From the NCBI GenBank assembly GCA_036395015.1, contig DASWDZ010000084.1:6151-70150 (forward strand): a DNA stretch of 64,000 bases, given 5' to 3'. The translations under genes and the position numbers were made by a program. Under the pieces are notes generated by a model. The model saw only the letters and a program-made list of their open reading frames with translations, was not told the DNA's origin and did no database searches. This DNA comes from Candidatus Dormiibacterota bacterium (lineage in GTDB: Bacteria > Chloroflexota > Dormibacteria > Dormibacterales > Dormibacteraceae). Positions 6,037 through 23,302 of this stretch are shown piece by piece; position 1 is the first letter of the stretch; each line of letters opens with the position of its first letter.

Positions 6037-6084
6037 CAGTAACGCCACTGTACGATCACCTGCCTTGCAATCATTGGAAACGGG

Positions 6085-7143: not shown

Positions 7144-7148
7144 GCACC

Positions 7149-8207
7149 ATGGCGTCAGTCAGCTTTCGACACGTCACGAAGCGATTCCGGGGTGGGGACG
7201 TCGCCGTGAGCGACCTCTGCCTGGACGTCGCCGACGGCGAGTTCATGGTCGTCGTCGGCCCCTCCGGTTGCGGCAAGTCGACGCTGCTCCGGCTGCTCGC
7301 CGGCCTCGAAGACATGGACCGGGGCGAAATCTGGCTCGGAGACACGATGGTCAACGAAGTGCCGACCCGGAATCGAGAGGTCTCGATGGTCTTCCAGGAC
7401 TACGCCCTCTATCCGCACCTCTCTGCCTTCGACAACATGGGGTTTGGTCTCCGCATGCAAGGCGTGGCGGCGCCCGAGATCGCGTGGCGAGTCAGCAGGG
7501 CGGCCGACATCCTCGAGATCGTTCCGATCCTGGACCGCAAGCCCCCAGTGCTCTCAGGCGGCGAGCGACAGCGCGTCGCGCTGGGCCGCGCGATCGTCAA
7601 GAACCCGCGTGCGTTCCTGCTGGACGAGCCCCTCTCCAGCATCGACGCCAGGCTGCGTGAGCAGATGCGGGTGGAGCTGCGCAAGATCCATCGCAAACTT
7701 CGGGCGACCTTCATCTATGTGACGCACGACCAGGTCGAGGCGATGACGTTGGGCGATCGGATCGCCGTCATGAAGGATGGGGTGCTGCAACAGGTGGCGC
7801 CGCCCACCGACATCTACGACCATCCCATCAACCTGTTCGTCGCCGGTTTCATCGGCACGCCGGCGATGAACTTCATCCCGGTCACCCTCAACGGCCGGAA
7901 GGCGAAAGGCTCGGCCATCGAGATCGAACTGCCCTATCCGTCGCGTGTCGACCGCGCGGTGCTCGGAATCCGGCCCGAGGCGATGACCGACCGCCTCGAT
8001 CCTCGTATGCCTACGATTGAGATGAAAGTCGAGATGGCGGAGTCGGTCGGCCAGCACCAGCTCATCTACGGTGTCGCCGGTGACGACGGAATCGTCGCCC
8101 GGATCGACTCCCATGCCCACGTGAACCGGGGGGATCACATGCGGCTCGGGCTCGACATCCGGTCGATCCATCTATTCGACGCCCAGACGGGCCAGGCGTT
8201 CATGTGA
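7149..8207 (+). CDS. ABC sugar transporter ATP-binding protein (MalK/MsiK/UgpC type)
   Basis: Walker [10 protein letters not shown], signature LSGGERQRV, Walker B FLLDEP, and a C-terminal TOBE-like domain. ATG at 7149 just after the upstream stop. Confidence 0.9.
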
Positions 8208-9061
8208 TCGCGCTCGATGCCTTCGGCCGGACCGGACATCGCAGCAGCCGAGCCATCTTCGGAGCGGCTGCCCTGTCGCAGGTCGATCAGTCGACCGCTG
8301 ACCGCACGCTCGACGTGCTCCTTCAGTACGGCGTCAACCACATCGACACGGCGGCGGGCTACGGCGACTCCGAGCTTCGCATCGCGCCCTGGCTCAAACG
8401 CGAGCCCGGCCGCTTCTTCCTGGCGACCAAGACAGGTGAGCGGAAGGCCGACGCCGCGCGCGAGCAGCTGCACCGCTCGCTCGACCGTCTCGGCGTCGAC
8501 CACGTCGATCTCTGGCAGCTGCACAGCCTGGCCGATCCGATCGAGTGGGACACGGCGCTCAGCCCGGGCGGGGTGATCGAAGCGGCGGTCGAGGCGCGTG
8601 AGGCGGGCCTGGTCCGTTTCATCGGCGTCACGGGCCATGGGATTCAGATCGCCGCCGGCCACCGGCGGTCGCTGGCTCGATTTGAATTCGACTCGGTCCT
8701 CCTCCCCTACAACTTCGTGACCATGCAAGAGCCGTACTACGCAAACAACTTCGAGGCGCTTCTCAGCACGTGCGCCGAACGTCAGGTCGCGGTCCAGACG
8801 ATCAAGTCCATCGCGCTGCGGCCGTGGATGGGACGCGACCGCACGCGGACGACGTGGTATGAGCCGCTGGAGGAGCAGGCGGCGATCGACCTCGCGGTCT
8901 GGTGGGTGCTCGGACGTCCGGGTGTGTTCCTCAACACCGTGGGCGATGTCGATCTGCTTCCCGGGGTGCTGGACGCCGCCTCGCGCTTCGAGCGGCGACC
9001 AAACGACGAAGAGATGGCGCGCATGGTGGAGCACGCGCGGCTCGAGCCGATCTTTCCCTGA
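8204..9061 (+). CDS. Aldo/keto reductase family oxidoreductase
   Basis: AKR-like sequence ([15 protein letters not shown]). GTGA overlap with the ATPase stop. Confidence 0.8.
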
Positions 9062-9244: not shown

Positions 9245-10153
9245 TCAACCTTTGAGGCTGCCGGCGGTCACTCCCTGGATGAAGAAGCGCTGGAAGGCGA
9301 TGAACAGCGCGACGATCGGCAGCACGACCAGCGTGGACGCGGCCATCAGAAGGTTGTAGGTCACATCGTGCGACTGCCGGTAGAACTGCAGCCCGATCGA
9401 CAGCGGGTAGACGCTCTCGTCCTGCAGGAAAAGCAGCGGGGTGAGGAACTCGCCCCACGCCTGGACCGCCGCAAAGATAACCACGGCCGCGACCGCGGGC
9501 CTGGCCAGCGGAAGGATCACATGCCAGAAGACCTGAAACTCGTTCGCGCCATCGATGCGCGCGGCTTCTGAGATCTCGTTGGGCAGGCTCAGGTAGAACT
9601 GCCTCATCAGAAAGATGAAGAACGGGCTGCCGAAGAACGCGGGCACGATCAAGGGCAGGAAGGTGTTGATCCAGCCGAGCTTGGCGAAGATGTCGAACAA
9701 GGCGACGATCAGGACCGGGAACGGGAGGAAGATCGTCGCCATACAGATGCCGAAGAGGAAATCCCTTCCCGGCCACTTGATCCTCGAAAAGCCATAAGCG
9801 ATCAGTGGGTTCGAGATCGCTGCGCCCAGCGTGGCGCCGGTGGTCAGGATGATCGAGTTCAGCAGGAAGGTGCCGAACGGCACGTACTGGACGGCTTTGA
9901 CGAAGTTCCCCCACTCGAAGACCTTGGGAATCAAGGTCGGTGGGAACTGCGTGAGCTCGGCCGTCGTTTTCACCGCCGAGTTCAGCATCCAGTAGAAGGG
10001 CAGGACGAACAACGCGCACGCGATGATCAGACCGACGCGGACGAGGATCGACTTGGGCAGCAGTTGCGAGAGCAGAGGCGGGCGCGGAGCAGGCAACCGC
10101 TCGACGGTGATCTGCGGTCGAGCGGCGTCTCGGATCTCGCGTGCGGTTGCCAT
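9245..10153 (-). CDS. Carbohydrate ABC transporter permease (MalG/UgpE-like)
   Basis: Multi-TM protein with the EAA-loop region EAARIDGANEFQVFWHVILPL. Confidence 0.9.
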   Translation of the reverse strand: MATAREIRDAARPQITVERLPAPRPPLLSQLLPKSILVRVGLIIACALFVLPFYWMLNSAVKTTAELTQFPPTLIPKVFEWGNFVKAVQYVPFGTFLLNSIILTTGATLGAAISNPLIAYGFSRIKWPGRDFLFGICMATIFLPFPVLIVALFDIFAKLGWINTFLPLIVPAFFGSPFFIFLMRQFYLSLPNEISEAARIDGANEFQVFWHVILPLARPAVAAVVIFAAVQAWGEFLTPLLFLQDESVYPLSIGLQFYRQSHDVTYNLLMAASTLVVLPIVALFIAFQRFFIQGVTAGSLKG

Positions 10154-10156
10154 TCG

Positions 10157-11116
10157 CTAGGCGCCCTCATAGTGGACCCACTGTCGGGACCAACGCATGA
10201 TGATGAGCGCCAGGACGATGCTGATCAGGAACAGCACCCAGGCCATCGCCGACGCGTAACCCATATCGCTGTACTGAAACGCGTTCTTGTACAGGTAGAA
10301 GACGTAGAACAAGAGCGAGTTCTCCGGCCCCGCCGTGTAGGCCGCGCCACCGCTCGTGCCGCCGACCAGGATGTAGGCCGGAGTGAAGATCTGCAGACCG
10401 AGGATCGTGCCGTACAAGAGGTCATAGAGGATGACCGGGGTGATCAGCGGCATTGTGACGTGCCAGAAACGTCGCAGCGGACCCGCGCCCTCGAGCCTAG
10501 CCGCCTCGTAGAGCTCGGTCGGCACCGCGCGCAGAGCGGCGAGGAAGATCAGGGCCGGGCCACCCGCGCCGAGCTGGGCGAGGAGGACGACCGAGATCTT
10601 GGTCCACCTGGCCTCGCCAAGCCAGTTGATCGTCGGCACGTGAAACAGGCTGAGGAACCAGTTGACGAAGCCGAACCCTGGGTTGAGGAGGACGATGAAG
10701 ATGAAGGTCAGGGCGAACAGCGGGAGAATCGAGGGCAGATAAAACGCAGCCCGGTAGATGGCGACCTCTCTGACGTTCTGGTTCATCAGCATGGCGAGCA
10801 CGATCGCCACCACGAGGCCGATGGGGACCGCTAGCGCGGTGTAGTAGAGCGTGTTGTACAGCGATTGAAAGAAGAGCGGGTCGCTGAACATGTGCTGGTA
10901 GTTCTTGAAGCCGACCGGCACCGCGTCGCCGAAGCCTGAGTACTGCTGGAAGCTCAGATAGAGCGAGTAGACGATCGGGTAGATCGTGAACGCAAAAAAC
11001 CCGATGATCCAGGGCAGTACGAACGGCGCGGCCGTGCGCAGCTGCCGCCAGTCGGCCGACGTCAGGCGCGGAAGCCGGGGAGCGGCGATCACCGCCGCTC
11101 CCCAGTGACTCTGCAC
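10157..11116 (-). CDS. Carbohydrate ABC transporter permease (MalF/UgpA-like)
   Basis: Multi-TM protein with the EAA-loop region YEAARLEGAGPLRRFWHVTMPL. Confidence 0.9.
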   Translation of the reverse strand: MQSHWGAAVIAAPRLPRLTSADWRQLRTAAPFVLPWIIGFFAFTIYPIVYSLYLSFQQYSGFGDAVPVGFKNYQHMFSDPLFFQSLYNTLYYTALAVPIGLVVAIVLAMLMNQNVREVAIYRAAFYLPSILPLFALTFIFIVLLNPGFGFVNWFLSLFHVPTINWLGEARWTKISVVLLAQLGAGGPALIFLAALRAVPTELYEAARLEGAGPLRRFWHVTMPLITPVILYDLLYGTILGLQIFTPAYILVGGTSGGAAYTAGPENSLLFYVFYLYKNAFQYSDMGYASAMAWVLFLISIVLALIIMRWSRQWVHYEGA

Positions 11117-11148
11117 ATCACTGCGGAGTCATCTCCCATCGAGAACTT

Positions 11149-12492
11149 CTACGGCAACGGGCAGTACTGCTTCAGCTTGTCGTTGGTTGCGCTGGCGGCA
11201 GCCGCAAGCGCCGATGCGGGGTCTTTGGTGTTGCGGACGGCAGCGTCCTGCGCCGTGCTCAGCTGGTCCCAGTAAAACGCTCCTACGGGCAACGGCGGCC
11301 GGCTGTGCGCCGCAGGAAGCTGCTTCTGGAAGAACTGGTGGTCACCAGGAAACAGGCTCGCGTCCTGGTCCAACGCCTTGATTACCGGCGTGTGCTGCGT
11401 GTCCTTGACGTATTGCCGCTGGCCCGGTTCGCCGGCGATGTACTTCAAGAAGTCGTACCCGGCTTTGGGGTTCTTGGCGCCCTTCGGGATCACATCCGAC
11501 CAACCACCGGCCCACGTGGCAGGCTGGTCGCCCTGGTTGGGCACCGGGATGTAGGTGACGCCGTACTGCAGATTCGGGGTGTAGGTCTTGATGTTGCCGA
11601 GGACCCAGTCACCGCTGATCATGAAGGCCACCTTGCCGAGCAGGAACATGTTCTGCTGCTCCGGCTGGTTCGGGGGAGAGAACGTGCTGAGGAAGGTCTG
11701 CGTCTGGCTCACGCCGAGCGACCTGGACCAATTCCAGAACATGTCTGTGAAAGCCTTCACGATCTTGGGGTCGTCGGGAGTGACCTTGCAGGCGCTCTTG
11801 TCGAAGAAGCTGCCTCCGTAGACAAAGCCCCATGTGTAGTGCCAGCCCTGCTGCCACCACGGGATGAAGCCGACCTGGGTGTACTTGCCCGACGAATCCT
11901 TCTTGTTGACCTTGTCCGCCATCGCCTTGATGGTGGCAATCGTGGGCGGACCCTTTGCCGGGTCGAGCGCGCTCAGGTCTGTGACGCCGGCCTGCTGCAG
12001 AACTGTCTTGTTGTAGTAGAGCGCGCGGGTGTCGGTGTCGAAGGGAAGCGCGTACGGCTTGCCCTTGAAGAGGGCCTCCTGCCACGCGAAATCGACGTAC
12101 TGGCTGGCGAGGTCGGCCGCGCCGTACTGGCTCAGGTCTTCGAGCACGCCTGCGGCGGCGCGCTCGGCGACCGTAAAGCGGTCGAGCATGTAGACATCCG
12201 GGCCCGTGCCGCCCCGGACCGCGGTGGTCAGCTTGGCGATGTCGGTCTCGGAACCTGGGACCTGGACCATCTTTACGCAGCCCACCGAGCTCTGGGCGTT
12301 ATAGGCGTTTACGATCGTCCTCAGGCTGTCGGAGTCGGGCGGCGTGTGCGAGGTCCAGAAGGTGACCAGGCTCGTGCCCGACTTACACCCGGCGAGCGGA
12401 GGACCCGACTGCCCACCGCCCCCACCGCAGGCGGTGACCACGAGTAACGAGAGAATCATCAATCGAATCCCTCGTCCGGGAAGTAATGCCAT
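11149..12492 (-). CDS. Extracellular sugar-binding lipoprotein of the ABC transporter (family 1 SBP)
   Basis: Signal peptide with a lipobox (LLVVTAC) followed by a Gly-rich linker, and an SBP_bac_1-like body. Confidence 0.9.
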   Translation of the reverse strand: MALLPGRGIRLMILSLLVVTACGGGGGQSGPPLAGCKSGTSLVTFWTSHTPPDSDSLRTIVNAYNAQSSVGCVKMVQVPGSETDIAKLTTAVRGGTGPDVYMLDRFTVAERAAAGVLEDLSQYGAADLASQYVDFAWQEALFKGKPYALPFDTDTRALYYNKTVLQQAGVTDLSALDPAKGPPTIATIKAMADKVNKKDSSGKYTQVGFIPWWQQGWHYTWGFVYGGSFFDKSACKVTPDDPKIVKAFTDMFWNWSRSLGVSQTQTFLSTFSPPNQPEQQNMFLLGKVAFMISGDWVLGNIKTYTPNLQYGVTYIPVPNQGDQPATWAGGWSDVIPKGAKNPKAGYDFLKYIAGEPGQRQYVKDTQHTPVIKALDQDASLFPGDHQFFQKQLPAAHSRPPLPVGAFYWDQLSTAQDAAVRNTKDPASALAAAASATNDKLKQYCPLP

Positions 12493-12699: not shown

Positions 12700-12743
12700 A
12701 TATGACATGTCAAGATCGGCCAAACAGCCATAACATGTCATAT
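12700..12743. promoter_or_regulatory. Candidate operator pair / divergent promoter region
   Basis: ATATGACATG (12700-12709) is the exact reverse complement of CATGTCATAT (12734-12743). TGACATGTCA (12703-12712) is itself a perfect palindrome. This AT-rich patch sits 13 nt upstream of the regulator ATG. Confidence 0.45.
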
Positions 12744-12755
12744 GGCATCGCCTAG

Positions 12756-13877
12756 ATGAGCCAGCACCGCCACCTGCTGTATGAGCGCCTCTACACCTAT
12801 GTCGTGGACGAGATCCGCAAGGGCACCCTGCGCAGCGGCGATCGAGTTCCGTCCGAGAAAGAGCTTGCGCGCGCGCACCAAGTCAGCCGAATCACCTCGA
12901 TGCGGGCTCTCCAGAACCTGCAGCGGGCCGGCATCGTGGAAAGGATCCGCGGCAAGGGGACATTTGTCGCAAGTGATGCGGAACGACTGGCCGCGCTGTC
13001 GCACGACGGCCGCGAGCGGCCGCGGCGCGACCGCCGGTCGACGTCGCAGATCGCATTCCTGCTGCCCGACGTCTCGCTCGCGTACGGCCTCGAGCTGCTG
13101 AAAGCAGTCGAGAAGCGCGCGGGTGAAGCCGACTTCAGCGTGGTGGTGAGGCGGACCATCGGCCTGCAGGACATCGAAGAGCAGGCCATCGACAAATTGG
13201 TCCGCGGGCGGTCCGTCGACGGCCTGGTCGTATTCCCGGTCAATGGCGAGTTCTACAACGCGAGCCTGCTCAGGCTTGCGCTCGAGAAGTATCCCCTCGT
13301 CCTCGTCGACCGCTACCTCAAAGGCATCGCCGCCACCGCCGTCTACACCGACAACGCGGCCGCAGCGCGAGAGCTCACCGGATTCGTGCTCGATCGCGGC
13401 CACGACAAAGTGGCGTTCGTGTCCTCGCATCCTGAACACACCTCGAGCATCGAGGACAGGCTCGATGGGTTCAGGACAGCGTTCAGCGAGCGTGGCCTCG
13501 GTCTCGAGGGACAGCATCTGCTCACAGGCTTGACCGGCGTCATCCCCTCAGCGGGGGGCGGGACCCCTGCCGACCACGCGGCGATCGAGGCGTTCGTCAA
13601 GCAGCACAGGTCGATCACCGGCTTCGTCGCCTCCGAACACTGGATGGCCCTCCTGCTCCACGACTCTCTTCGCCGGCGCGGACGGCTCCGGCAGACCACG
13701 GTGGTCTGCTTCGACTCGCCCCGCGACCCGCTGGTCGAGCCGCGCTTCACGCACATCCAGCAGAACGAGGCCGAGATGGGACGCAAAGCAGTCGACCTGC
13801 TGCTCGCGCAGCTCGACGGGCAGCAGACCCCGAGCCAGTCGATCGTCCCCCATGAGCTGGTGAAACTCCCCACCTGA
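12756..13877 (+). CDS. AraR-type transcriptional regulator (GntR winged-helix N-terminus + LacI/PBP1 sugar-binding domain)
   Basis: The N-terminus PSEKELARAHQVSRITSMRALQNLQRAGIVERIRGKGTFV is a GntR HTH. The C-terminal ~280 aa resemble a LacI-type ligand domain. Confidence 0.85.
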   Translation: MSQHRHLLYERLYTYVVDEIRKGTLRSGDRVPSEKELARAHQVSRITSMRALQNLQRAGIVERIRGKGTFVASDAERLAALSHDGRERPRRDRRSTSQIAFLLPDVSLAYGLELLKAVEKRAGEADFSVVVRRTIGLQDIEEQAIDKLVRGRSVDGLVVFPVNGEFYNASLLRLALEKYPLVLVDRYLKGIAATAVYTDNAAAARELTGFVLDRGHDKVAFVSSHPEHTSSIEDRLDGFRTAFSERGLGLEGQHLLTGLTGVIPSAGGGTPADHAAIEAFVKQHRSITGFVASEHWMALLLHDSLRRRGRLRQTTVVCFDSPRDPLVEPRFTHIQQNEAEMGRKAVDLLLAQLDGQQTPSQSIVPHELVKLPT

Positions 13878-13894: not shown

Positions 13895-15295
13895 GTGATC
13901 ACGCGGAGGCGCTTCCTGGCCGGCCTGGGGGGCGCCGCCCTCACCCTCGGCGGGGCTGCGCTCTGGTTCGCGCGGAGCCGGCCTGCGCCCGTGATGCCTC
14001 CCGCCGACCAGATCGCAGCCGACGTCCGGTCGGAGCTCCTGCGGGCCTGGCGCGCCTACGAGCGGCTGGCCTGGGGCCACGACGAGCTGAAGCCACTGTC
14101 GGGTGGTCACCAGGAGTTCTTCAACCGCGGTCACCCGGTCGGTCTCACGATCGCCGAGGCGTTGGACACGCTCTACGTGATGGGCCTCGACGCCGAGCTG
14201 GACGCCTCGGTGCGATGGATCGAGACGCAACTCGAGCTGGACATCGACGCCCCGGTCCAGGTCTTCGAGACCGTGATCAGGATGCTCGGCGGCCTCCTCG
14301 CCGGCCACCTGGCGACCCAGAACAGGACGCTGCTGGCCAAGGCGCGGGAGCTTGCCGATCGCCTCCTGCCCGCCTTCACCACGTCGCCGACGGGCATGCC
14401 ATACCGCTTCGTGAACCTGCATTCCGGCGCCGTCAGCACGCCCGCGAATTACGTCGCCGAGGTCGGGACGAATCTCGCCGAGTTCGGCATCCTGAGCAGG
14501 CTCGTCGGCGACGACCGCTACCTCAAGGTCGCCAAGCAGGCCGCTCGGGCCGTCTACGACCGCCGCTCGACGCTCGACCTGCTCGGGACCACGATCGACG
14601 TCGAGACCGGCGGCTGGCTCGACGCCCTATCGGTCGGCCCGCAGCCGCCGGTCGACTCCTATTACGAGTACCTGTACGACGGCTACCGGCTGTTCGGAGA
14701 TGCCGACCTTCTGGCGTGGTTCACGACGTTGACCGCCGGCCTCCAGCGCCGGCAGTGGGACGAGGTGGCCGGGCGCGGCTGGTACCGGCAGGTGCAGTTC
14801 CAATCGGGAACGCAGCTCAACACCTACGAATCGTCGCTGGCCGCCTTCTGGGCCGGAAGCCTCGGCGAGGCCGGCATGCGGAAGGAGGCCGACCAGGTGC
14901 TGGAGGCGTTTCGCTCGGTGCTCGACCGTTACGGTCTGCTCCCAGAGCAGTTCGACTACAGCGATATGTCGATCCGTGATCCCGGCCACCAGCTGCGGCC
15001 GGAATACGCGGACTCGTGCCTCGCCCTTTTCATCACGAGCGGCGGTTCAGACCTGTATCGCCGTCGTGCCTATCAGCTTTACCAGGCGATGAAGAGTTAC
15101 TGCCGCGTGCCGAACGGCTACACGATCATCGACGACATCACGGCCCGGCCGATGTCGCTGGGCGACCTCACGCCGGCCTACTGGTTCGCCGAGAACATGA
15201 AGTACTTCTATTTGCTGTTCGCCGAGTCGCCACGCTTCGACTACAAGCACAACTACCTGAGCACCGAGGGCAAGATCCTGGTCGGCCTGCGCTAG
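13895..15295 (+). CDS. Glycoside hydrolase family 47 alpha-1,2-mannosidase with Tat signal
   Basis: Twin-arginine signal MITRRRFLAGLGGAAL. GH47 blocks: AWGHDELKPLS, FETVIRMLGGLLAGH, LAEFGILSRL, DSYYEYL, LRPEYADS, FAENMKYFYLLF. Confidence 0.9.
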   Translation: MITRRRFLAGLGGAALTLGGAALWFARSRPAPVMPPADQIAADVRSELLRAWRAYERLAWGHDELKPLSGGHQEFFNRGHPVGLTIAEALDTLYVMGLDAELDASVRWIETQLELDIDAPVQVFETVIRMLGGLLAGHLATQNRTLLAKARELADRLLPAFTTSPTGMPYRFVNLHSGAVSTPANYVAEVGTNLAEFGILSRLVGDDRYLKVAKQAARAVYDRRSTLDLLGTTIDVETGGWLDALSVGPQPPVDSYYEYLYDGYRLFGDADLLAWFTTLTAGLQRRQWDEVAGRGWYRQVQFQSGTQLNTYESSLAAFWAGSLGEAGMRKEADQVLEAFRSVLDRYGLLPEQFDYSDMSIRDPGHQLRPEYADSCLALFITSGGSDLYRRRAYQLYQAMKSYCRVPNGYTIIDDITARPMSLGDLTPAYWFAENMKYFYLLFAESPRFDYKHNYLSTEGKILVGLR

Positions 15296-16332
15296 GCCAG
15301 TTTCGCGCGTTCGGCCGCATTCTCGGCGAGCAGGCGGTAAGGGTAGTCGGGCGTCGGCGGAGCGCTCACCTCGTCGAGGCGCGAGCGCTGGTCTTCGCTC
15401 AACGTGACGTCGGCGGCCAGGAGGTTGTCGGCGATCTGCTCTGCGGTCCGGGCTCCGAGCAGCGGCGCCGCCACGCCGGGGCGATCGGCGAGCCAGCGCA
15501 GCGCGACACGCGCCGGCGGCACGCCGAGCTCGGATGCGACCGCTTCCACCGCCTCGACGATCCGCCACGTGCGTTCGACGTTGCGGCGCGCATAGCCTTC
15601 CACGCCGCGGTTGGGATCCTCACCCAGTCGAGTCGCACCGGCGGGCGCCGCGTCGCGGCGGTACTTGCCAGACAGCCAGCCCTGGCCGAGCGGTCCCCAG
15701 GGAATGATGCTCAACCGGTGCTCGAGGCAGACCGGCACCAGCTCCCACTCGATCTCGCGGGCGAGCATGTTGTACTGCGGCTGCAGCGAGATCGGAATCG
15801 AGACGCCCATCTGCTTCGCCGTCTGAACCGTGCGCTCGAGCTGCCACCCCGTGAAGTTCGAAACCCCGATGTAGCGCACCTTGCCCGACCGTACGAGCGC
15901 ATCGAAGGCGGCAAGCGAGTCCTCGATGGGCGTCGCGGGATCCCACTGATGGGCTTGATAGAGGTCGATGTAGTCGGTCTGCAGGCGCCGCAGGCTGTCG
16001 TCGCACGCGCGGATGATCCATCGCCGCGACAGGCCCTCCGAGTTGCCCGAGTCGTCCATCCGGCCGCGGCACTTCGTGGCCAGGACGATCGCATCGCGCA
16101 CGGCCGGGCGCCGGCTGAGCCAGCGCCCGATGATCTCTTCCGAGGTGCCCTTGGGTCCCGCCGGGGGGTAGACGTCGGCTGTGTCGACCAGGTTGCCGCC
16201 CGCATCCACGTAACGATCGAGGATCTCGCCCGCCGCCGCCTCGGGGGCCTCCTGCCCGAAGGTCATGGTGCCGAGCGCGAACTCCGTCACCAACACGCCC
16301 GTCCGGCCCAACAAGCGTTTGCGCATCGTCAT
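15292..16332 (-). CDS. Aldo/keto reductase
   Basis: MTMRKRLLGRTGVLVTEFALGTMTFG and NLVDTADVY motifs. The ATG at 16332 overlaps the upstream stop as ATGA. Confidence 0.85.
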   Translation of the reverse strand: MTMRKRLLGRTGVLVTEFALGTMTFGQEAPEAAAGEILDRYVDAGGNLVDTADVYPPAGPKGTSEEIIGRWLSRRPAVRDAIVLATKCRGRMDDSGNSEGLSRRWIIRACDDSLRRLQTDYIDLYQAHQWDPATPIEDSLAAFDALVRSGKVRYIGVSNFTGWQLERTVQTAKQMGVSIPISLQPQYNMLAREIEWELVPVCLEHRLSIIPWGPLGQGWLSGKYRRDAAPAGATRLGEDPNRGVEGYARRNVERTWRIVEAVEAVASELGVPPARVALRWLADRPGVAAPLLGARTAEQIADNLLAADVTLSEDQRSRLDEVSAPPTPDYPYRLLAENAAERAKLA

Positions 16333-17096
16333 CCTCCCCATCCCAGGTCCGCCACGAGCTTGGTCAGGTTCGCGTGGCTGATCGCCACGCTGTCCAGGGG
16401 GTCGCGTCGCGGGTTGTCCTGCTCGACGACGAGCCACCGGGTCTCGGCGTCGCGGCATGCGGCAAGGATGTCCAGCCAGTCCAGGTTGCCCTCGCCGATC
16501 TCGGCGTCGAAGGGGTTGCCTTGATCGACCGCCAGGTCCTTGAGATGGACGAGCGGGACCCGCCGCTGGAAGCGCCGGATCCAGGCTGCCGGGTTGGCGC
16601 CCCCGTACTGGAGCCAGTACGTGTCCAGCTCCGCCTGCAGAACATCGCCATTGCTGGCTCCGAACAGCGTCTCCAGTCCCGTCTGGTCGCCGTATCTCTC
16701 GAGCTCGTGGGCGTGGTTGTGATAGGCGAGACGCAATCCAGACGCCTTCAACCGACCGGCGAGGTCAGCGGCCTCCACCGCGAAACGGCGGTAGCCGTCC
16801 AGCGACCTGTATTCCTGCGGGAGGCTAGGGACGACGACGTATTCACAGCCCCAATCGCCGCATTCCGCGACCACGGCGTCGAAATCCGCGTTGAGCCGGT
16901 CCAGCCCGCAATGACAGGCGCAGGCGATGAGATCCGCGCTTCGCAGCTCCTCTCCGAATCGGTCGATCGTCGCCTTTCCGAGTCCAGCCACCTCGACTGC
17001 GCGATAGCCGATCTCGCGCACGCGCTTCAGCACACCACCGATCTGTTCTGGATCCTGAAGGAGAGTCCGCAGCGTGTACAGCTGAACCGCGATCAC
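16329..17096 (-). CDS. Sugar phosphate isomerase/epimerase family protein (xylose isomerase-like TIM barrel)
   Basis: IAVQLYTLR, EIGYRAVEV, LAYHNHAHE and HLKD motifs are typical of the AP_endonuc_2 / xylose-isomerase-like fold. The GTG at 17096 overlaps the upstream stop as GTGA. Confidence 0.8.
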   Translation of the reverse strand: MIAVQLYTLRTLLQDPEQIGGVLKRVREIGYRAVEVAGLGKATIDRFGEELRSADLIACACHCGLDRLNADFDAVVAECGDWGCEYVVVPSLPQEYRSLDGYRRFAVEAADLAGRLKASGLRLAYHNHAHELERYGDQTGLETLFGASNGDVLQAELDTYWLQYGGANPAAWIRRFQRRVPLVHLKDLAVDQGNPFDAEIGEGNLDWLDILAACRDAETRWLVVEQDNPRRDPLDSVAISHANLTKLVADLGWGG

Positions 17097-18208
17097 GGCG
17101 TCGCGACAAGGCCCGCGTCTTGCGGAAGCAGTCGGGGCCGGCGGCATGTGCTCGACACCGTGATGTGACGGCCGGCCGCATTCGATTCGACGATCGAAAG
17201 CAGGACGTCGAGGACGTGGTAGGCAAGCTCTCCGGAGGCACGCGGCGCCTCGCCCTGGCGTAGCGCTTGCGCCATCTCGATCACGCCGAGACCGCGGAAA
17301 TTCCTGGCACCGTCGGTGTGGCCGTACTGGAGCTCGATGTCTCGCCAGGTCGAATCCTCAGCGGTGGACCGGACCTTGACCGGGCCGCCGAAGGTGTTGG
17401 GATCCGGCACGCCCAGGATGGCCTCGGTGCAGTAGACCTGCATGTTGGGAAGATCGTGGCCCGAGATTCCAAAGCTGGTCACCAGCGTCGCCTGGGCGCC
17501 GCTCTCGAACTCGATCAAAGCCGCCACGAACGTGTCAGTGCTGACCTTGAACGTGTCGCCTGCACTCGGTCCGCGGTCGGCTCTTCGTTCCGGATAGAGG
17601 ATGCGCGACATCCCGGTGACGCGCTTGACCGGTCCCAGCAGACAGACGAGCGTGGTCACGTAGTACGGCCCGACGTCGAGCAGCGGACCGCCGCCCGGCT
17701 CATAGAAAAAAGACGGGTTGGGATGCCAGTTCTCAGGGCCCCGGTTGAGCATGAATCCGGAGGCGGCCAGCGGCTCGCCCACGTGTCCCTGCTCCATCAA
17801 CCACAGACACGTCTGAATCCCGGCCCCGAGGAACGTGTCGGGTGCGCCGCCGACGCTCAGGCCCCGCTCTGCGGCGACCTCGAGGACGCGCTGACCGAGC
17901 GCCCTGGTCGTGGCAAGCGGCTTTTCCGTGTACACGTGCTTTCCGGCCGCCAGGGCGGCGAGGCTGATCTCGGCGTGGGCGTTGGGGACGGTCAGGTTCA
18001 CGACCAGCTCGACCCGTGGATTCGCAAGGAGCTCATCCGTGGTCCCGGCGCGTGGGACACCGAACTCCGCAGCGCGCGCCCGGGCCGTTTCCAGGTTCTG
18101 GTCGGCACAGGCGACCACCTCCACGTGCGGGGACGCGGTCAGGTTGGAGAGGTACGGCTTGCTGACCGTTCCGCAGCCGACGATGCCGACCCCAAGGCGG
18201 TTGCTCAC
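17093..18208 (-). CDS. Gfo/Idh/MocA family oxidoreductase
   Basis: LGVGIVGCGTVS Rossmann motif and VYTEKPL. I prefer the GTG at 18208; alternatives are ATG 18250 and GTG 18268. Confidence 0.8.
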   Translation of the reverse strand: MSNRLGVGIVGCGTVSKPYLSNLTASPHVEVVACADQNLETARARAAEFGVPRAGTTDELLANPRVELVVNLTVPNAHAEISLAALAAGKHVYTEKPLATTRALGQRVLEVAAERGLSVGGAPDTFLGAGIQTCLWLMEQGHVGEPLAASGFMLNRGPENWHPNPSFFYEPGGGPLLDVGPYYVTTLVCLLGPVKRVTGMSRILYPERRADRGPSAGDTFKVSTDTFVAALIEFESGAQATLVTSFGISGHDLPNMQVYCTEAILGVPDPNTFGGPVKVRSTAEDSTWRDIELQYGHTDGARNFRGLGVIEMAQALRQGEAPRASGELAYHVLDVLLSIVESNAAGRHITVSSTCRRPRLLPQDAGLVATP

Positions 18209-18248
18209 TCGCGGCTCACCGGATAGACAGGCTAACGTTCTGGCTGGC

Positions 18249-21200
18249 ATGGGGACGGTGCTGGTCACAGACCTTGCAGCGAAAAAGGATCAGCTGCTGG
18301 CCGCGATCGAGCGAGAGAGCACGCCGCTCGAGCTCTCGGCCTACATGGTGCGCGGCGCGCCGGTTTCATTCGAGGAAGCCACCCGCGGCGACTTCAGGAC
18401 ATTTCATATGGGCGATCGGTGGGGGCCGCCCTGGAGCACGACGTGGTTTCACGTTCGTGGTCGCGTCCCCTCCGGATGGTCCGGTCAGCCTGCGGTGGCT
18501 GTCTTCGATCTCGGCTTTGAGGGCCGCCACCCGGGATTCACATGCGAGGCGCTCGCCTGGCGCGACGGCAAACCATGGCGCGGCGTCGACCCGAGACACC
18601 GTTGGCTCCCGATCTCCTCGCCAGAAGTCGACTTCTACCTGGAGGCCGGGGCGATCCCCACGGCAGTCGTCAGCGGGCCGGCCGATGCCCCTTCGATGAT
18701 CGCCCTGCGCGAATCCGCCGAGCCCGCGTTCGTGTTTGGTCGTGCCGAGCTTCGCATTCAGGATCCGGCCGCCCGCAAGGTTGCCCTCGACTTCAAGACG
18801 CTGTACGAGCTGGCCATGGTGCTGCCAGACGGCGACCGGCGGACCCAGAACCTGGAAGCGCTGACTCGGTTCGCCGCGAACAACGATCCGGTGGAGCTTG
18901 CAAGAGCCAGCTCTCGACCGTCGACGTCGACGCACATGATCACGGCGGTCGGTCACGCGCATATCGACACCGCGTGGCTGTGGCCGCTGCGCGAGACGCG
19001 CCGAAAGTGCGCACGCACGTTCTCGACCGCGCTCGCGCTGATGGACGAATATCCCGATTACCGGTTCGCCTGCTCGCAGCCGGCCCAGTACGCCTGGATG
19101 AAGGAGTCGTACCCCTCGATCTTCGAGGGAATCCGGCAGAAGGTCAGGTCTGGGCAGTGGGAGCCGGTGGGCTCGATGTGGGTCGAGGCCGACTGCAACC
19201 TGCCATCCGGCGAGGCGCTGGTCCGCCAGTTCCTGCACGGGAAGCGATTCTTCATGGAGGAATTCGGGGTCGACACGCGCGAGCTCTGGCTGCCCGATGT
19301 CTTCGGTTATCCGGCGTCGCTGCCACAGCTGATCGCGGAGTCAGGTGGCGAATACTTCCTGACCCAGAAGCTCTCCTGGAACGACACCAACAAGCCTGCC
19401 CACCACACGTTCATGTGGGAGGGCATCGATGGCAGCGCGATCTTCACGCACTTCCCACCAGCGGACACGTACAACGGTGACTTCAGCGCGACGCAGATCG
19501 TGCAGAGCGCCGTCGACTTCAAAGACCAGGACCGCTCGTCGAACTCCCTCTATCTCTATGGGTGGGGCGACGGAGGTGGCGGGCCCGAGCCCGACATGCT
19601 CGAGTCGGCTCACCGGCTGCACAGCATCGAAGGCGCCCCGCAGGTCGAGCTCGGCCGAGCCGCGGATTTCTTCGTACGCGCGAAGCAGGAGGCGCATGAC
19701 CTCACGACGTGGGTGGGCGAGCTGTACTTCGAACTGCATCGCGGCACGTACACATCACAGGCGCGGACGAAGCGGCTCAACCGCCGGTCTGAACAAGCGT
19801 TGCGCGAGGCCGAGACATGGTCTGTGGCGGTCGGGAGCGACTATCCACGTGAGCTTTTCGATTCCACGTGGAAGCGATTGCTGATCAACCAGTTCCACGA
19901 CATCCTTCCCGGGTCGAGCATCGACTGGGTCTACGAGGACGCCGAGCGCGAGCTGGAGGCGGTGGTCGAGGTCGCCGGGGGCATGATCACGGCCGCCCAG
20001 TCGAAGCTCGCCGGCTCAGGCGGCAACCTGACGGTTTTCAACGTCAACTCGCACGCGCGGCGCGAGGTGGTCGAGGTTGACGGCGAGGCAGTGCTGGTCG
20101 AGGCCCCCGCTTGCGGCTGGGCGTCGGTCGACCGGACGAAGCCGGCGGAGGTCGATCCAGTCTCGATCTCTGGACGCGTCATGGAGAACGGCCTGCTGCG
20201 CGTGACCTGGGACGACGACGGATTGCTCACCTCGATCTGGGACAAGGAGGTGGGCCGAGAGGTCCTTGCACCCGGCGCGCGCGGCAACCTGCTGCAGCTG
20301 CACGACGACAATCCCAAGAACTGGGACGCCTGGGACGTCGACGCCGACTATCGCCGTCGCTCGAGCGATATCACGCGGCTCGTGAAGGCAACGGTGGAGA
20401 CGAGCGGTCCGCTCCGCGCTGCCGTCTGGTTCACGCGTGAGTTCGGGTCTTCCAGGCTCGAGCAACGCATGGTCCTGGACGCCGGATCGCGGGTCCTCCG
20501 GTTCGAGACCGACGTCGACTGGCAGGAGGAGCACAAATTCCTGAAAGCGGCGTTTGGGGTCGCCGTGCGTTCGCCACGGGCGACGTACGAGATTCAGTTC
20601 GGCCATGTCGAGCGCAGCACGCATGCCAACACGAGCTGGGACCAGGCTCGGTTCGAGGTCTGCGCTCACCGGTGGGCACATCTCGGTGAGCCCGGATACG
20701 GCGTCGCACTCCTCAACGATTGCAAGTACGGCTACGACATCCAGGGCTCGGTGATGCGCCTTTCGCTGCTCCGCGCGCCTACCCATCCCGATCCGAATGC
20801 CGATCGTGGCAAGCACCGCTTCACGTACGCGCTGATGCCCCATCCCGGAGACTTCCGGGACGCGGGAGTGATCGCGGCCGCGGAAGACCTCAACCATCCG
20901 CTGCGCACGGTGCGCGGCGCGGTGCCGGAAGGCGAGCAGCGATCGCTGATCCAGGTCGACACTCCTCAAGTCGTCGTGGAGGCGATCAAGCGCGCGGAGG
21001 ACTCGGACGCAGTGATCGCGCGCCTGTACGAATCGTGGGGCGGGCGCTGCCGGGCAAGGCTTCGCACGTCGCTCCCGGTCGGGCGCGCCTACCTTTGCGA
21101 CCTGCTCGAGCGAGAGCGCCAGGAGGTGGCGGTCCGCGACGGCGTGCTCGAGCTCGAGGTCGAACCTTTCAAGATCCTCACGCTGAAGCTGGAACCGTAA
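18249..21200 (+). CDS. Glycoside hydrolase family 38 alpha-mannosidase (MAN2C1-like, no signal peptide)
   Basis: VGHAHIDTAWLWP catalytic-region motif, N-terminal WGPPWSTTWFHVRG block, about 980 aa. The ATG at 18249 lies within the longer tracked ORF. Confidence 0.9.
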   Translation: MGTVLVTDLAAKKDQLLAAIERESTPLELSAYMVRGAPVSFEEATRGDFRTFHMGDRWGPPWSTTWFHVRGRVPSGWSGQPAVAVFDLGFEGRHPGFTCEALAWRDGKPWRGVDPRHRWLPISSPEVDFYLEAGAIPTAVVSGPADAPSMIALRESAEPAFVFGRAELRIQDPAARKVALDFKTLYELAMVLPDGDRRTQNLEALTRFAANNDPVELARASSRPSTSTHMITAVGHAHIDTAWLWPLRETRRKCARTFSTALALMDEYPDYRFACSQPAQYAWMKESYPSIFEGIRQKVRSGQWEPVGSMWVEADCNLPSGEALVRQFLHGKRFFMEEFGVDTRELWLPDVFGYPASLPQLIAESGGEYFLTQKLSWNDTNKPAHHTFMWEGIDGSAIFTHFPPADTYNGDFSATQIVQSAVDFKDQDRSSNSLYLYGWGDGGGGPEPDMLESAHRLHSIEGAPQVELGRAADFFVRAKQEAHDLTTWVGELYFELHRGTYTSQARTKRLNRRSEQALREAETWSVAVGSDYPRELFDSTWKRLLINQFHDILPGSSIDWVYEDAERELEAVVEVAGGMITAAQSKLAGSGGNLTVFNVNSHARREVVEVDGEAVLVEAPACGWASVDRTKPAEVDPVSISGRVMENGLLRVTWDDDGLLTSIWDKEVGREVLAPGARGNLLQLHDDNPKNWDAWDVDADYRRRSSDITRLVKATVETSGPLRAAVWFTREFGSSRLEQRMVLDAGSRVLRFETDVDWQEEHKFLKAAFGVAVRSPRATYEIQFGHVERSTHANTSWDQARFEVCAHRWAHLGEPGYGVALLNDCKYGYDIQGSVMRLSLLRAPTHPDPNADRGKHRFTYALMPHPGDFRDAGVIAAAEDLNHPLRTVRGAVPEGEQRSLIQVDTPQVVVEAIKRAEDSDAVIARLYESWGGRCRARLRTSLPVGRAYLCDLLERERQEVAVRDGVLELEVEPFKILTLKLEP

Positions 21201-22266
21201 CCCGGCGCCAGGCCGGCCACCACGCGACGACGGCCAGTGCGACGAGCAGCGCGACCTCGAACAGCGTCCAGCGGTTGAGCCGAATGGCAAGGCTCGTGCT
21301 GTTGATGTAGGGGACCGAGATGAGCCAGCCGGCCGCGATCGGCATCCGCCATCCCCACCAGGCCTTCTCCTCCCACACCATCCAGGCGGCTGCGCTGAAC
21401 AGGCACAGGTCCGAGCCGTGGAGGTACGGCACCACCAGCAGCGAGCCCAACGCGCCGGTGGCGATCACAAGGCAGGGCGACGATCGAAGCCGGTAGGCGG
21501 TGACCAGGGTGACCGCGGCGATGACAACCCTGAGCGCCGTGGCCGCCCCGCCCGTGATCCCGAAGGCGCCCTCGACAGTGAGGTTGTTCGCGCCCGTGGG
21601 AAGCTCGCCTGTGAGCTGGCCCAGGTAATCCGAGATGCCGTTCACCCCCATGGACAAGATGGCGACAATGGCGATCACGCAGCCGGCCGCAGCCCAGGCC
21701 GCAAAGATTCGATAGCGGCCCGCGACCAGCAGCGCCAGAGGGACGAGCAGCGCGGTGTTCGGTTTCAGGTAGAGCAGGGACAGCGCGATCCCCGCCGCCA
21801 CGTCGTTCCGCTCGCGCGCGAACCGGGTCGCGACCACCGCGCCGGTCGCCACCAGTGGAGCGACCTGGCCAAGGTTGACCGCGTGAATCACCCACCACGG
21901 CGCCAGCGCCGCCGCGGCGTAGAGCCATCGCTCGAAACCTCGACTCCGGGACGCCCACACCAGGGCGGCGGCGAACGCGACCAGGTTGGTCACGGCCCAG
22001 ACCCAGTAGGCAACCCAGTACGGCAGCGGCGTCAGGGGCACGGTCAGCCAGGCGTCGGTGGGTGGGCTGAGGAACGGCTGCGCAATCTGCTCCGGGACCA
22101 GCTGCTTCTGCGCGGCGGCGACGAGGTCCTGGTCGTAGATCGCGGACCATCCGTGCTGAACGCCCACCAAGGCCGCCGCCAGGTAGGTGTGAAAGTCGAT
22201 GCCGATCGGCTCGTACCGATTCACCACGTCCAGGAAAAGGGCGACGAGCACGACCAGGAGCGCCAC
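21178..22266 (-). CDS. Polytopic membrane protein, GT-C fold glycosyltransferase-like (DUF2029/GT87-like)
   Basis: About 10 predicted TM segments. The N-terminal IGIDFHTYLAAALVGVQHG loop and a LYLKPN loop resemble DUF2029 mannosyltransferases. The family call is tentative. Confidence 0.45.
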   Translation of the reverse strand: MALLVVLVALFLDVVNRYEPIGIDFHTYLAAALVGVQHGWSAIYDQDLVAAAQKQLVPEQIAQPFLSPPTDAWLTVPLTPLPYWVAYWVWAVTNLVAFAAALVWASRSRGFERWLYAAAALAPWWVIHAVNLGQVAPLVATGAVVATRFARERNDVAAGIALSLLYLKPNTALLVPLALLVAGRYRIFAAWAAAGCVIAIVAILSMGVNGISDYLGQLTGELPTGANNLTVEGAFGITGGAATALRVVIAAVTLVTAYRLRSSPCLVIATGALGSLLVVPYLHGSDLCLFSAAAWMVWEEKAWWGWRMPIAAGWLISVPYINSTSLAIRLNRWTLFEVALLVALAVVAWWPAWRRVTVPASA

Positions 22267-22282: not shown

Positions 22283-23302
22283 CTAGAGATTCTTCAGCTC
22301 CACGATCTCGCCCCGATCCGCCGACGCGTAGGCACCGAGAATCACCTTCAGCACGTTGACGCCCTCGACCTCCGTGTTGAGCGGTCGCCGGTTCTCACGC
22401 AGGCAGGCGATGAAGTCGACGACCTCCAGGGCGTAGGTGTCCGGCTCCGACGGGCCGGCCTCCTGGGCGACGGTCTGCTGACCACCGCGCGGTTTGAAGA
22501 ACAGCGTGCGACCGTCGCTCCATAGGCTGCCGTGCTCGCCGACCACCGAGAACCGTTCCGTGCTTCCGGCAGGCTCATAAGCCCATCCGGTGACGATCGA
22601 TCCGATGGTGCCGTCGGCGAACTCGACCAGGACGTGCGCCGTGTCCTCGCCCTCCATGAAGGACAGTCGATGCCGGCTCAGCATCGCCGCCACCTTGACA
22701 GGGACGCTGTCGACGAGATGGAGGAGCAGGTAGTTTGGGTGATACCCGGTATCGATCAGCTCACCGCCGCCGCTCGTCGCGCGCGCCGCTCGCCAGCCAA
22801 GCGTCTCCGGGGTGACGTTGAGCGCAAAAACGTCGGTGGTGCGAGCGGCGTAAACCTTGCCGAGCTTGCCCTCGCGAATCATGGCGCGCGCGGTCGCGAC
22901 CGTCGGCAGGAACAGTTGATTGTGCGCACACATCAGGGTGACACCGGCGGACGCCACCGCCCTGGTCACGGCGTCGGCCTCCTCGAGCGTCAGGCACAGA
23001 GGTTTCTCGCACAGGATGTGCTTGCCCGCGGCCGCCGCCGTCACGATGGCGTCCTTGTGCAGATGGTGCGGGAGGCAGATGTCGACCGCGTCGACCTCCG
23101 GCGACGCGATCATCTCCCGATAGTCGCTGAAGACCTCGAAACCGCCCAACTGTCTGGTGTGGCTGCGCGCACGATCCGCATCGACATCCGCGATCGCGGT
23201 CACCTGAGAGTGCTGTGCTGCGAGCAGGTAGCCATGGATGTGATGGCCGGCGATGTTGCCCGCGCCGATGATTCCGACTCCGATCTTTCCGTTCTGTGTC
23301 AT
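22283..23302 (-). CDS. Gfo/Idh/MocA family oxidoreductase
   Basis: KIGVGIIGAGNIAGHH Rossmann motif and ILCEKPL. Confidence 0.85.
   Translation of the reverse strand: MTQNGKIGVGIIGAGNIAGHHIHGYLLAAQHSQVTAIADVDADRARSHTRQLGGFEVFSDYREMIASPEVDAVDICLPHHLHKDAIVTAAAAGKHILCEKPLCLTLEEADAVTRAVASAGVTLMCAHNQLFLPTVATARAMIREGKLGKVYAARTTDVFALNVTPETLGWRAARATSGGGELIDTGYHPNYLLLHLVDSVPVKVAAMLSRHRLSFMEGEDTAHVLVEFADGTIGSIVTGWAYEPAGSTERFSVVGEHGSLWSDGRTLFFKPRGGQQTVAQEAGPSEPDTYALEVVDFIACLRENRRPLNTEVEGVNVLKVILGAYASADRGEIVELKNL

Follow-up and report, generated by a model that had tools for sequence, protein, structure and literature searches.

A candidate oxidative glycoside-cleaving gene trio linked to α-mannosidase genes in Candidatus Dormibacterota

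Described oxidation/elimination systems and the Dormibacterota locus

Cleavage of glycosides by oxidation and elimination is a general alternative to the action of classical glycosidases that has been recognised only recently and is documented in gut Bacteroidota, rhizobia and the degraders of levoglucosan and C-glycosides. Here we compare the described systems with a locus in a 64,000-nucleotide stretch of contig DASWDZ010000084.1 from a Candidatus Dormibacterota bacterium (henceforth the window; G+C content, 66.5%). The genes in question form a minus-strand trio coding for an oxidoreductase of the Gfo/Idh/MocA family (Gfo), a xylose-isomerase-like TIM barrel and an aldo-keto reductase (AKR), and they are flanked by two glycoside hydrolase (GH) genes, a GH47 with a twin-arginine translocation (Tat) signal and a signal-less GH38. 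With confidence a little above even, we read the trio as a cytoplasmic, nonhydrolytic glycoside-cleaving module (oxidation, β-elimination, possibly hydration, and reduction) that stands beside a sugar ATP-binding cassette (ABC) importer and α-mannosidases.

The first system to be compared is the “Oxo” pathway of Agrobacterium tumefaciens, which acts on plant glucosides by means of GlycDH, AtOGE, AtHYD and a Gfo protein (Bitter et al. 2023, PMC10628242; PDB 8BVK). Its AtOGE (8BVK) is a Mn2+-dependent 3-keto-O-glycoside β-eliminase (PMC10628242) and is the closest solved relative of the window TIM barrel (36% identity over 224 aligned residues; profile E-value, 4e-40), and the metal and catalytic residues of the two are the same. 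Both operons also follow one plan, in which a TIM-barrel eliminase is combined with an oxidoreductase and a reductase. In contrast to the periplasmic FAD-dependent GlycDH of Agrobacterium, however, the proposed oxidant here is a cytoplasmic Gfo; the locus lacks an AtHYD-type second TIM barrel, includes an AKR, and has Gly48 in place of AtOGE Asn52; and its context is one of mannosidases rather than plant phenolic glucosides.

The broad-specificity pathway of Alistipes AL1-4 and Bacteroides BT2156-2160 turns over α- and β-mannosides in vitro (bioRxiv 10.1101/2024.03.25.586180; PDB 8TCD, 8TCR, 8TCT), and AL1 and BT1 (8TCD and 8TCT, respectively) are 3-keto-β-glucopyranoside 1,2-lyases (same preprint). 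These two are the top structural and second-best sequence matches of the window TIM barrel, and they too are paired with Gfo/Idh/MocA 3-dehydrogenases. Whereas the Alistipes and Bacteroides enzymes are mostly periplasmic, hold NAD tightly and operate with a DUF1080 α-lyase/hydratase, the proteins proposed here for the pathway are devoid of signal peptides and of DUF1080, are accompanied by an additional AKR, and score far under the cut-offs of BT_2158_fam and BT_2159_fam. An earlier note on this DNA, made from the sequence alone, knew of no description of the combination for mannosides; this stands for the gene context, which is new, but not for the reaction, as the Alistipes/Bacteroides enzymes have been shown to cleave mannosides by way of a 3-keto intermediate in vitro (bioRxiv 10.1101/2024.03.25.586180).

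The levoglucosan pathway of LgdA, LgdB1, LgdB2 and LgdC proceeds through oxidation, β-elimination, hydration and reduction (Kuritani et al. 2020, PMC7676230). It resembles the proposed module in being cytoplasmic and NAD dependent, in combining a Gfo dehydrogenase, a TIM-barrel eliminase and hydratase, and a Gfo reductase, and in lying beside an ABC transporter; moreover, the bifunctional LgdB2 sets the example of one TIM barrel performing both elimination and hydration. The relative that most resembles this pathway is a minimal locus (L018) with three Gfo genes and one TIM barrel. The window differs in having one TIM barrel rather than two, and its Gfo scores 47.8 bits versus a cut-off of 650 with LevoglcsnDh, a family model as distinct from the Lgd sequences themselves. 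C-glycoside deglycosylation by DgpA and DgpB-DgpC (PDB 7XR9, 9M3D, 7EXZ) follows the same oxidise-then-eliminate logic, and DgpA/DgpA1 are the best solved sequence relatives of the trio Gfo (E 2e-26), but DgpB/DgpC is a two-subunit enzyme where the window has a single TIM gene, which shows no sequence match to it and does not have it within its top 50 fold matches. The YcjQRS system of Escherichia coli, which converts gulosides to glucosides (PDB 6WN6), similarly acts on 3-keto-glycosides with a dehydrogenase, a TIM barrel and a reductase of another family; unlike the lyases, however, YcjR is an epimerase (3-keto-glucoside 4-epimerase), and it is a remote fold match at 18% identity. Finally, the NAD-dependent glycosidases of families GH4 and GH109 also operate by oxidation, elimination, hydration and reduction, but they accommodate the four steps in one polypeptide and have no sequence relation to the trio.

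Neither the chemistry nor the two core enzyme families are new; the novelty lies in the gene context. The locus differs from the described systems in its phylum, in being a fully cytoplasmic, Gfo-driven version with an AtOGE-type lyase, in the coupling of a DepB-like AKR in place of a dedicated hydratase, and in its tight linkage to GH38 (in some genomes also GH47) and an oligosaccharide importer. In the literature searched, a limited collection that makes this weak negative evidence, we found no description of a GH38- or GH47-linked oxidative module. The locus suggests that the same chemistry may serve the Dormibacterota, an abundant uncultured soil phylum, that it may be wired into an α-mannosidase and ABC-importer locus, and that an AKR may take the place normally held by a second Gfo or a hydratase. 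If so, both the substrate range and the taxonomic spread of such cleavage would be widened, with a compact three-enzyme cytoplasmic system for mannosides; if the substrate is a simple glucoside or anhydro-sugar, the trio would be just another member of a known pathway.

The coupled trio and its predicted active sites

The genes and junctions of the trio and its immediate flanks are as follows.

17093..18208, minus strand: Gfo/Idh/MocA NAD-type oxidoreductase, 371 residues (PF01408 and PF22725; E 4e-21 and 7e-20), proposed glycoside (C3) dehydrogenase
16329..17096, minus strand: xylose-isomerase-like TIM barrel, 255 residues (PF01261; E 3e-14), proposed metal-dependent 3-keto-glycoside 1,2-lyase (β-eliminase), possibly also glycal hydratase
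15292..16332, minus strand: aldo-keto reductase, 346 residues (PF00248; E 1e-78, 264.6 bits), proposed NADPH-dependent keto-sugar reductase
17093..17096, minus strand: GTGA start/stop overlap of Gfo and TIM barrel, read from the sequence and also present in Joint Genome Institute (JGI) gene calls of loci L001 and L002
16329..16332, minus strand: ATGA start/stop overlap of TIM barrel and AKR, read from the sequence
13895..15295, plus strand: GH47 α-1,2-mannosidase family protein (PF01532; E 2e-90)
18249..21200, plus strand: GH38 α-mannosidase, 983 residues (PF22907, PF01074, PF09261, PF07748 and PF17677), divergent from the trio
18209..18248, no strand: intergenic region of 40 bp between the divergent Gfo and GH38 genes, read from the sequence

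The earlier note had the three genes chained by the two four-nucleotide overlaps, and a base-by-base rereading bears this out. The Gfo gene runs from a GTG start at 18208 to a TGA stop at 17095-17093, the TIM barrel gene from a GTG start at 17096-17094 to a TGA stop at 16331-16329, and the AKR gene from a possible ATG start at 16332-16330 to a TAG stop at 15294-15292. There is another candidate AKR start, ATG 16326, which lies 6 nt after a GGAGG (16337-16333) and two bases past the TIM-barrel stop; whichever of the two is used, the AKR is coupled to the TIM barrel. As such overlaps are common in operons generally, the meaningful part is their conservation: 4-nt overlaps recur in the independent JGI calls of orthologous loci, namely, at 10001-10004 and 10765-10768 in L001 and between the Gfo and the TIM barrel in L002. 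All components are without signal peptides, suggesting that the trio acts on imported sugars.

The TIM barrel carries most of the functional prediction. In a single-sequence search of the PDB, its best match was AtOGE (8BVK; E 7e-30), followed by 8TCT, 8TCD and 8TCS (approximately 1e-15), with IolE marginal at 7.5e-3. A profile of 27 homologs recovered AtOGE at 4e-40 (141 bits), the AL1/BT1 group at about 2e-23, and IolE at 6e-6 and 8e-4, with the remaining matches all at 7e-5 or weaker; in neither search did DgpB/C or YcjR give a match at E <= 1, and IolI was not matched by the profile. The AlphaFold2 model of the protein (pLDDT, 93.3) is a β/α barrel, for which Foldseek placed AL1, BT1 and AtOGE at ranks 1 to 6 with TM-scores of 0.71 to 0.83, and, lower down, IolE (4e-12), IolI (2e-10), YcjR (6WN6; 1e-9) and the hydratase AtHYD (2e-9); DgpB/DgpC was not among the top 50 matches.

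With the roles of the AtOGE residues taken from PMC10628242 and the lyase motif also from bioRxiv 10.1101/2024.03.25.586180, the AtOGE metal ligands His132, Asp163, His189 and Glu233 correspond to H126, D158, H184 and E225 of the window protein, the proposed base His134 to H128, and the second-site residues Glu39, His66 and Glu161 to E35, H62 and E156. W161 corresponds to AtOGE W166, the Trp of an Asp-x-x-Trp motif common to BT1. All of these residues, the second-site ones and this Trp included, are invariant in the 27 homologs. By these comparisons, the TIM barrel is a homolog of the characterised 3-keto-O-glycoside β-eliminases/lyases with an intact active site. The earlier note had likened the trio to DgpA with DgpB/DgpC and to keto-glycoside routes; a lyase-type TIM barrel with an intact site is indeed present, but its nearest relatives are AtOGE and AL1/BT1 rather than DgpB/C.

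Two other assignments of the TIM barrel were considered and rejected. As a DgpB/C (CGE) protein it would have to be reconciled with the lack of any match at E <= 1, the position of DgpB/C outside the Foldseek top 50, and the single TIM gene. Assignment to IolE fails on the TIGR04379 score of 46.6 bits versus a cut-off of 290, reached over a partial alignment only; the profile, the cut-off scores and the fold ranking all favour AtOGE/AL1/BT1 over IolE and IolI. Searched against 1.84 billion representatives, the family amounts to 1,345 clusters at E <= 1e-30. In a Rosetta-stone test, the partners of the TIM domain in long proteins were a methyltransferase (the product, probably, of a read-through gene call) and Ig-like domains, other long proteins had no recognisable partner, and fusions to a Gfo or GH domain were absent.

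The Gfo protein consists of a Rossmann N-terminal domain and a Gfo/Idh/MocA C-terminal domain and displays a GxGxxG motif, an invariant K96 within YTEKP, a D178-x3-Y182 pair and, where β2 ends, an invariant D36. An Asp at the position of D36 usually signals NAD rather than NADP, and NAD is the cofactor we would predict. The nearest solved sequence relatives of the Gfo are DgpA1/DgpA (2e-26, 95 bits), followed closely by proteins of unrelated activity, namely, 3DB2 (84 bits) and 1,5-anhydrofructose reductase (81 bits). A DgpA-like oxidoreductase, as the earlier note had it, is therefore borne out as far as the best match is concerned (95 versus 84 bits), but C3 regiospecificity is not assignable from the protein itself because the margin of DgpA is small and the fold search does not discriminate. 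Assignment to IolG was rejected, with a TIGR04380 score of 59.6 versus a cut-off of 355 over a partial alignment only. More generally, no NCBIfam equivalog reached its cut-off for any protein of the trio or locus, and PDB searches with the two other Gfo proteins of the locus were nondiscriminating for one and without a strong match for the other.

The AKR possesses the catalytic tetrad of its superfamily (D50/Y55/K87/H128). Its nearest solved relative is DepB (PDB 8HWN, 7UTF), to which it aligns full length (residues 4-333; E 2e-110 with 8HWN). DepB is an NADPH-dependent 3-keto-deoxynivalenol reductase, i.e., it reduces a ring 3-ketone; unlike the system proposed here, its partner is a PQQ dehydrogenase and its substrate a trichothecene, and no sugar activity is known for it. 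The AKR belongs to a group able to reduce a ring ketone, a group for which no sugar substrate is known.

Proposed route, conservation across genomes and competing explanations

In the route that we propose, the Gfo would use NAD+ to turn a ring hydroxyl of an imported glycoside into a ketone; C3 is the expected position, by analogy and in view of the TIM-barrel partner. The keto group would then be bound by the His/Asp/His/Glu metal site of the TIM barrel, where abstraction of the C2 proton would expel the aglycone and leave a 2-hydroxy-3-keto-glycal. The TIM barrel may also hydrate this glycal, as LgdB2 does and as AL1/BT1 slowly do, and the AKR, or either of the other Gfo proteins of the locus, would reduce the keto-sugar to an ordinary hexose. 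We infer all three steps, the second from homology and the conserved active site. Two solved structures count in favour of this scheme: DgpA, the nearest to the Gfo, is a C-glycoside 3-oxidase, and DepB, the nearest to the AKR, reduces a ring 3-ketone.

The same set of enzymes could instead convert a glycoside without cleaving it. As in YcjQRS, the Gfo would oxidise C3, the TIM barrel would epimerise a neighbouring carbon via an enolate, and the AKR would rereduce C3, for example, to bring a glycoside into or out of a form hydrolysable by GH38. The composition of a dehydrogenase, a TIM barrel and a second reductase of another family, without a hydratase, is like that of YcjS/YcjR/YcjQ, which Mukherjee and colleagues are said to have described in 2019; YcjR is among the fold matches (E 1e-9), and DepB is the reducing half of an oxidise-then-reduce epimerisation. 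However, YcjR has no sequence match at E <= 1 and ranks 38th or lower in Foldseek at 18% identity, far after AL1, BT1 and AtOGE; the His-x-His ... Asp-x-x-Trp ... His ... Glu pattern of the TIM barrel is of the lyase type; and deprotonation of a 3-keto-glycoside at C2 is expected to eject the aglycone. We hold such an epimerisation to be distinctly unlikely.

The conservation of the cleavage module proposed here was assessed by a TIM-profile scan of one genome per species, which gave 79 loci; the window proteins were mapped by tblastn on these and on four metagenome loci. The nearest public relatives of the locus are metagenome-assembled genomes of Candidatus Dormibacterota, with L019 being 88 to 97% identical across the locus. 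In the Dormibacterota loci, the TIM barrel is 62 to 89% identical to that of the window; the Gfo gene lies directly upstream of it in all 22 related loci with that flank on the contig, and the AKR gene lies directly downstream in 20. GH38 adjoins the trio in 17 related loci, 13 of which have a divergent ortholog, 77 to 90% identical, as in the window. In L020, L021, L023 and L025, the gene is another GH38 paralog (30 to 32% identical), codirectional with the trio and placed before the Gfo; in L025, its TGA overlaps the GTG of the Gfo (GTGA), so that all four genes (GH38-Gfo-TIM-AKR) form one coupled operon in that lineage.

More distant TIM homologs (31 to 50% identity) are found in Armatimonadota, Planctomycetota, Poribacteria, Paenibacillus and Lachnospiraceae. 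By Pfam, their 105 immediate neighbours include 31 Gfo/Idh/MocA, 7 GH29, 3 GH123, 3 further PF01261 and 1 GH38 proteins, GH29 being the commonest glycosidase (7/105). The TIM-Gfo pair is thus a cross-phylum unit, often beside glycosidases. An association of the trio with glycosidases across genomes, which the earlier note had proposed to look for, is consequently present both as the GH38 of the Dormibacterota loci and as the GH29, GH123 and GH38 of the distant homologs.

A GH29 α-L-fucosidase and a short-chain dehydrogenase/reductase are encoded directly downstream of the trio in L020 (11780-13811).

Several observations weigh against the cleavage module. In comparison with DgpA, the Gfo keeps D178, but the His of the DgpA GGGxLxDxGxH motif is replaced by the invariant Tyr182; Tyr occurs in place of this His in glucose-fructose oxidoreductase (GFOR), and it is plausible that Tyr182 is catalytically workable though not DgpA-like. 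The Gfo falls well under the equivalog cut-offs (LevoglcsnDh, 47.8/650; BT_2158_fam, 20.3/750; BT_2159_fam, 27.9/650) and is therefore not a member of these equivalogs but only likened to them in its working. A fold search with the Gfo model, which was built with database homologs, returned 4GQA, scyllo-inositol dehydrogenase, 1,5-anhydrofructose reductase, GFOR, levoglucosan dehydrogenase and DgpA1, all at E 1e-27 to 1e-23. The locus is without a dedicated hydratase, whether as a second TIM barrel or as a DUF1080 protein, and we know of no precedent for an AKR in the known oxidation/elimination pathways. The Dormibacterota loci are mutually related, and their synteny does not amount to 20 independent observations. 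L004 has the Gfo-TIM pair without AKR and GH38, adjoining ThuA and a Gfo, an ABC transporter, a LacI regulator and a GH2. Lastly, L018 (7833-11873), which is syntenic with the window (YbbR, GlmS, amidase), consists of the third Gfo of the window, the trio Gfo, the TIM barrel and the divergent second Gfo, with the third-Gfo ortholog directly upstream of Gfo-TIM; it is a minimal redox core without a glycosidase that also lacks GT87, the AKR, the regulator and the ABC transporter.

L018 is also the best argument for a different explanation, in which the trio catabolises a free monosaccharide, anhydro-sugar or cyclitol (IolG/IolE-, levoglucosan- or 1,5-anhydro-sugar-like) by way of dehydrogenase, dehydratase/isomerase and reductase, with no glycosidic cleavage, and the proximity of GH38 reflects joint use of its hydrolysis product: this core has neither a glycosidase nor an oligosaccharide transporter. 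IolE, which likewise carries out a β-elimination beside a ketone, comes second to the lyases among the functional classes; the best matches of the Gfo include scyllo-inositol dehydrogenase and 1,5-anhydrofructose reductase; and an iol cluster adjoins the trio in L023 and L025. Against this, the IolE and IolG scores are far under the cut-offs, and the profile E-value of IolE is some 34 orders of magnitude weaker than that of AtOGE. The earlier note had named a grouping of the TIM barrel and Gfo with IolE, IolI and IolG as a check on its proposal, and no such grouping was found (TIGR04379, 46.6/290; TIGR04380, 59.6/355; IolE at 6e-6 versus AtOGE at 4e-40).

The inositol clusters themselves, at 13010-19419 in L023 and 13012-19320 in L025, lie directly downstream of GH38-Gfo-TIM-AKR and a major facilitator superfamily transporter. 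In the Pfam scan, which covered the L023 genes, the cluster comprises IolB/KduI, an IolD-type thiamine diphosphate enzyme, a Cgl0159-like protein, a PfkB kinase, an IolE-like PF01261 protein and a Gfo; hence, a separate IolE-like TIM barrel and Gfo reside inside the canonical iolB/C/D cluster, from which it follows that the trio is distinct from IolE/IolG. In Pfam scans of the window proteins, iolB, iolC and iolD were absent. The importer of the window is, furthermore, of the two-permease MalK type (SBP_bac_1), a type that usually serves oligosaccharides, and levoglucosan cleavage is an intramolecular glycoside elimination, so that this subcase merges with the cleavage that we favour. Overall, we deem free-sugar catabolism unlikely. 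The position of the iol cluster beside the trio in L023 and L025 could be coincidence or a pointer to mannosyl-inositol substrates.

The proposal that the three are general redox/isomerase genes held together by synteny in one phylum, without joint function and with a housekeeping or detoxifying AKR, draws on the AKR being the most conserved of the trio (77 to 92% identity among related loci) and belonging to a widespread group of unknown natural substrates, as well as on association evidence that comes mostly from a single phylum. It is hard to square with the conserved start/stop overlaps, the coupling of a GH38 paralog to the trio in an independent arrangement, and the recurrence of the TIM-Gfo pairing in unrelated phyla, and we regard it as very improbable.

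As for the substrate of the favoured cleavage module, the recurrence of GH38, GH47, GH29, GH2 and GH123 genes as neighbours hints at glycans that are of the glycoprotein type or rich in mannose, and it is the gene context, and only this, that suggests mannosides. Speculatively, the module probably removes a linkage of an imported mannose-containing oligosaccharide beyond hydrolysis by GH38/GH47, and a β-mannoside would be a reasonable but speculative residual linkage resistant to α-mannosidases. Of the glycoside-processing module put forward in the earlier note, the glycoside-lyase homology stands, whereas the mannoside part comes from context, and L018 is without a glycosidase. The narrower proposition of a dedicated cytoplasmic route for a mannose-containing linkage resistant to GH38/GH47, with the β-mannosyl core of N-glycan-type oligosaccharides and mannosyl-inositol as candidates, strikes us as quite improbable. 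On that proposition, a mannoside could be turned straight into glucose through hydration and reduction by the AKR, as the configuration at C2 is lost in the glycal intermediate; mannose kinase and phosphomannose isomerase would be bypassed, and NAD+-linked oxidation followed by NADPH-linked reduction would render the process irreversible.

Mannosidase genes, importer, regulator and surroundings

The trio is, as the earlier note described it, divergent from a cytoplasmic GH38 and convergent with a Tat-exported GH47, according to Pfam and inspection of the N termini by eye. The GH47 N terminus, VITRRRFLAGLGGAALTLGGAALW, includes TRRRFLAGLG, a Tat-type motif. The stop codons of GH47 and the AKR both fall within the palindrome CTAG at 15292-15295, which leaves no space for a terminator between these convergent genes. 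In the tblastn map of related loci, GH47 was found only in the window, L005, L006 and L019, and on account of this restriction it is a lineage-specific addition. The GH38 N terminus, MGTVLVTDLAAKK..., has no signal peptide. Its likely start is ATG 18249, rather than the longest open-reading-frame start at 17910, leaving the 40-bp gap to the Gfo, which is too short for two separate leaders and in which motif comparison over the related loci revealed no conserved operator. In the JGI gene calls, the corresponding gap is -2 bp in L001 and 11 bp in L002. Such short gaps suggest leaderless or overlapping divergent transcription or miscalled starts.

The remaining features of the locus are listed below. 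They include two further Gfo genes and a second AKR, all present as the earlier note had stated.

6085-7143, 7122-8207 and 8204-9061, plus strand: overlapping operon of the second Gfo/Idh/MocA, a MalK-type ABC ATPase and the short second AKR
9245..12492, minus strand: CUT1-type sugar ABC importer (PF01547/PF13416 and PF00528 twice), kept beside the trio in relatives
11149-12492, minus strand: solute-binding protein of the importer (PF01547/PF13416)
10157-11116 and 9245-10153, minus strand: permeases of the importer (PF00528 twice)
12700..12743, no strand: inverted pair of exact ATATGACATGT 11-mers with the core palindrome TGACATGTCA, in the divergent intergenic region between solute-binding protein and regulator
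12756..13877, plus strand: regulator with a GntR-type helix-turn-helix (HTH) and a LacI-type sugar-binding domain (PF00392 with PF13377, PF13407 and PF00532), kept next to the trio in most relatives
22283-23302, then 21178-22266, minus strand: third Gfo/Idh/MocA, then GT87 glycosyltransferase, a pair kept in related loci

By their coordinates, the genes of the second-Gfo operon overlap at 7122-7143 and 8204-8207, and this operon is kept in related loci. The ATATGACATGT pair occurs at the same intergenic position in 11 of 11 related loci with the regulator and is missing from the loci without it; this pair is probably the operator of the GntR-HTH/LacI-sensor regulator. An operator common to trio/GH38 and transporter was considered and rejected, as the conserved pair is restricted to the intergenic region between the regulator and the solute-binding protein. 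One copy with a single mismatch, ATATGAAATGT, lies at 18399-18409 in the 5' part of GH38, approximately 190 nt upstream of the Gfo start; since it is not kept in related loci, it is probably due to chance.

ThuA-Gfo pairs are encoded at 4075-5869 in L002 and 2692-4424 in L004, with the L002 Gfo, which follows ThuA, being the ortholog of the third Gfo of the window; this is the gene-pair type of the rhizobial 3-keto-disaccharide system, and its occurrence counts in favour of the cleavage module. The GT87 gene, which follows the third Gfo, shares 23 bp with the convergent GH38 gene at the 3' end of the latter, an arrangement kept in most related loci. By synteny with L001, the stretch between ThiE and the second Gfo (approximately 5300-6040, minus strand) probably codes for an extracytoplasmic function sigma factor and a zf-HC2 anti-sigma factor. 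Past approximately 24 kb, the window contains the housekeeping genes Alr, GlmS and CdaA, and a run of short codirectional open reading frames at approximately 35 to 57 kb suggests ribosomal-protein operons; the region is therefore chromosomal.

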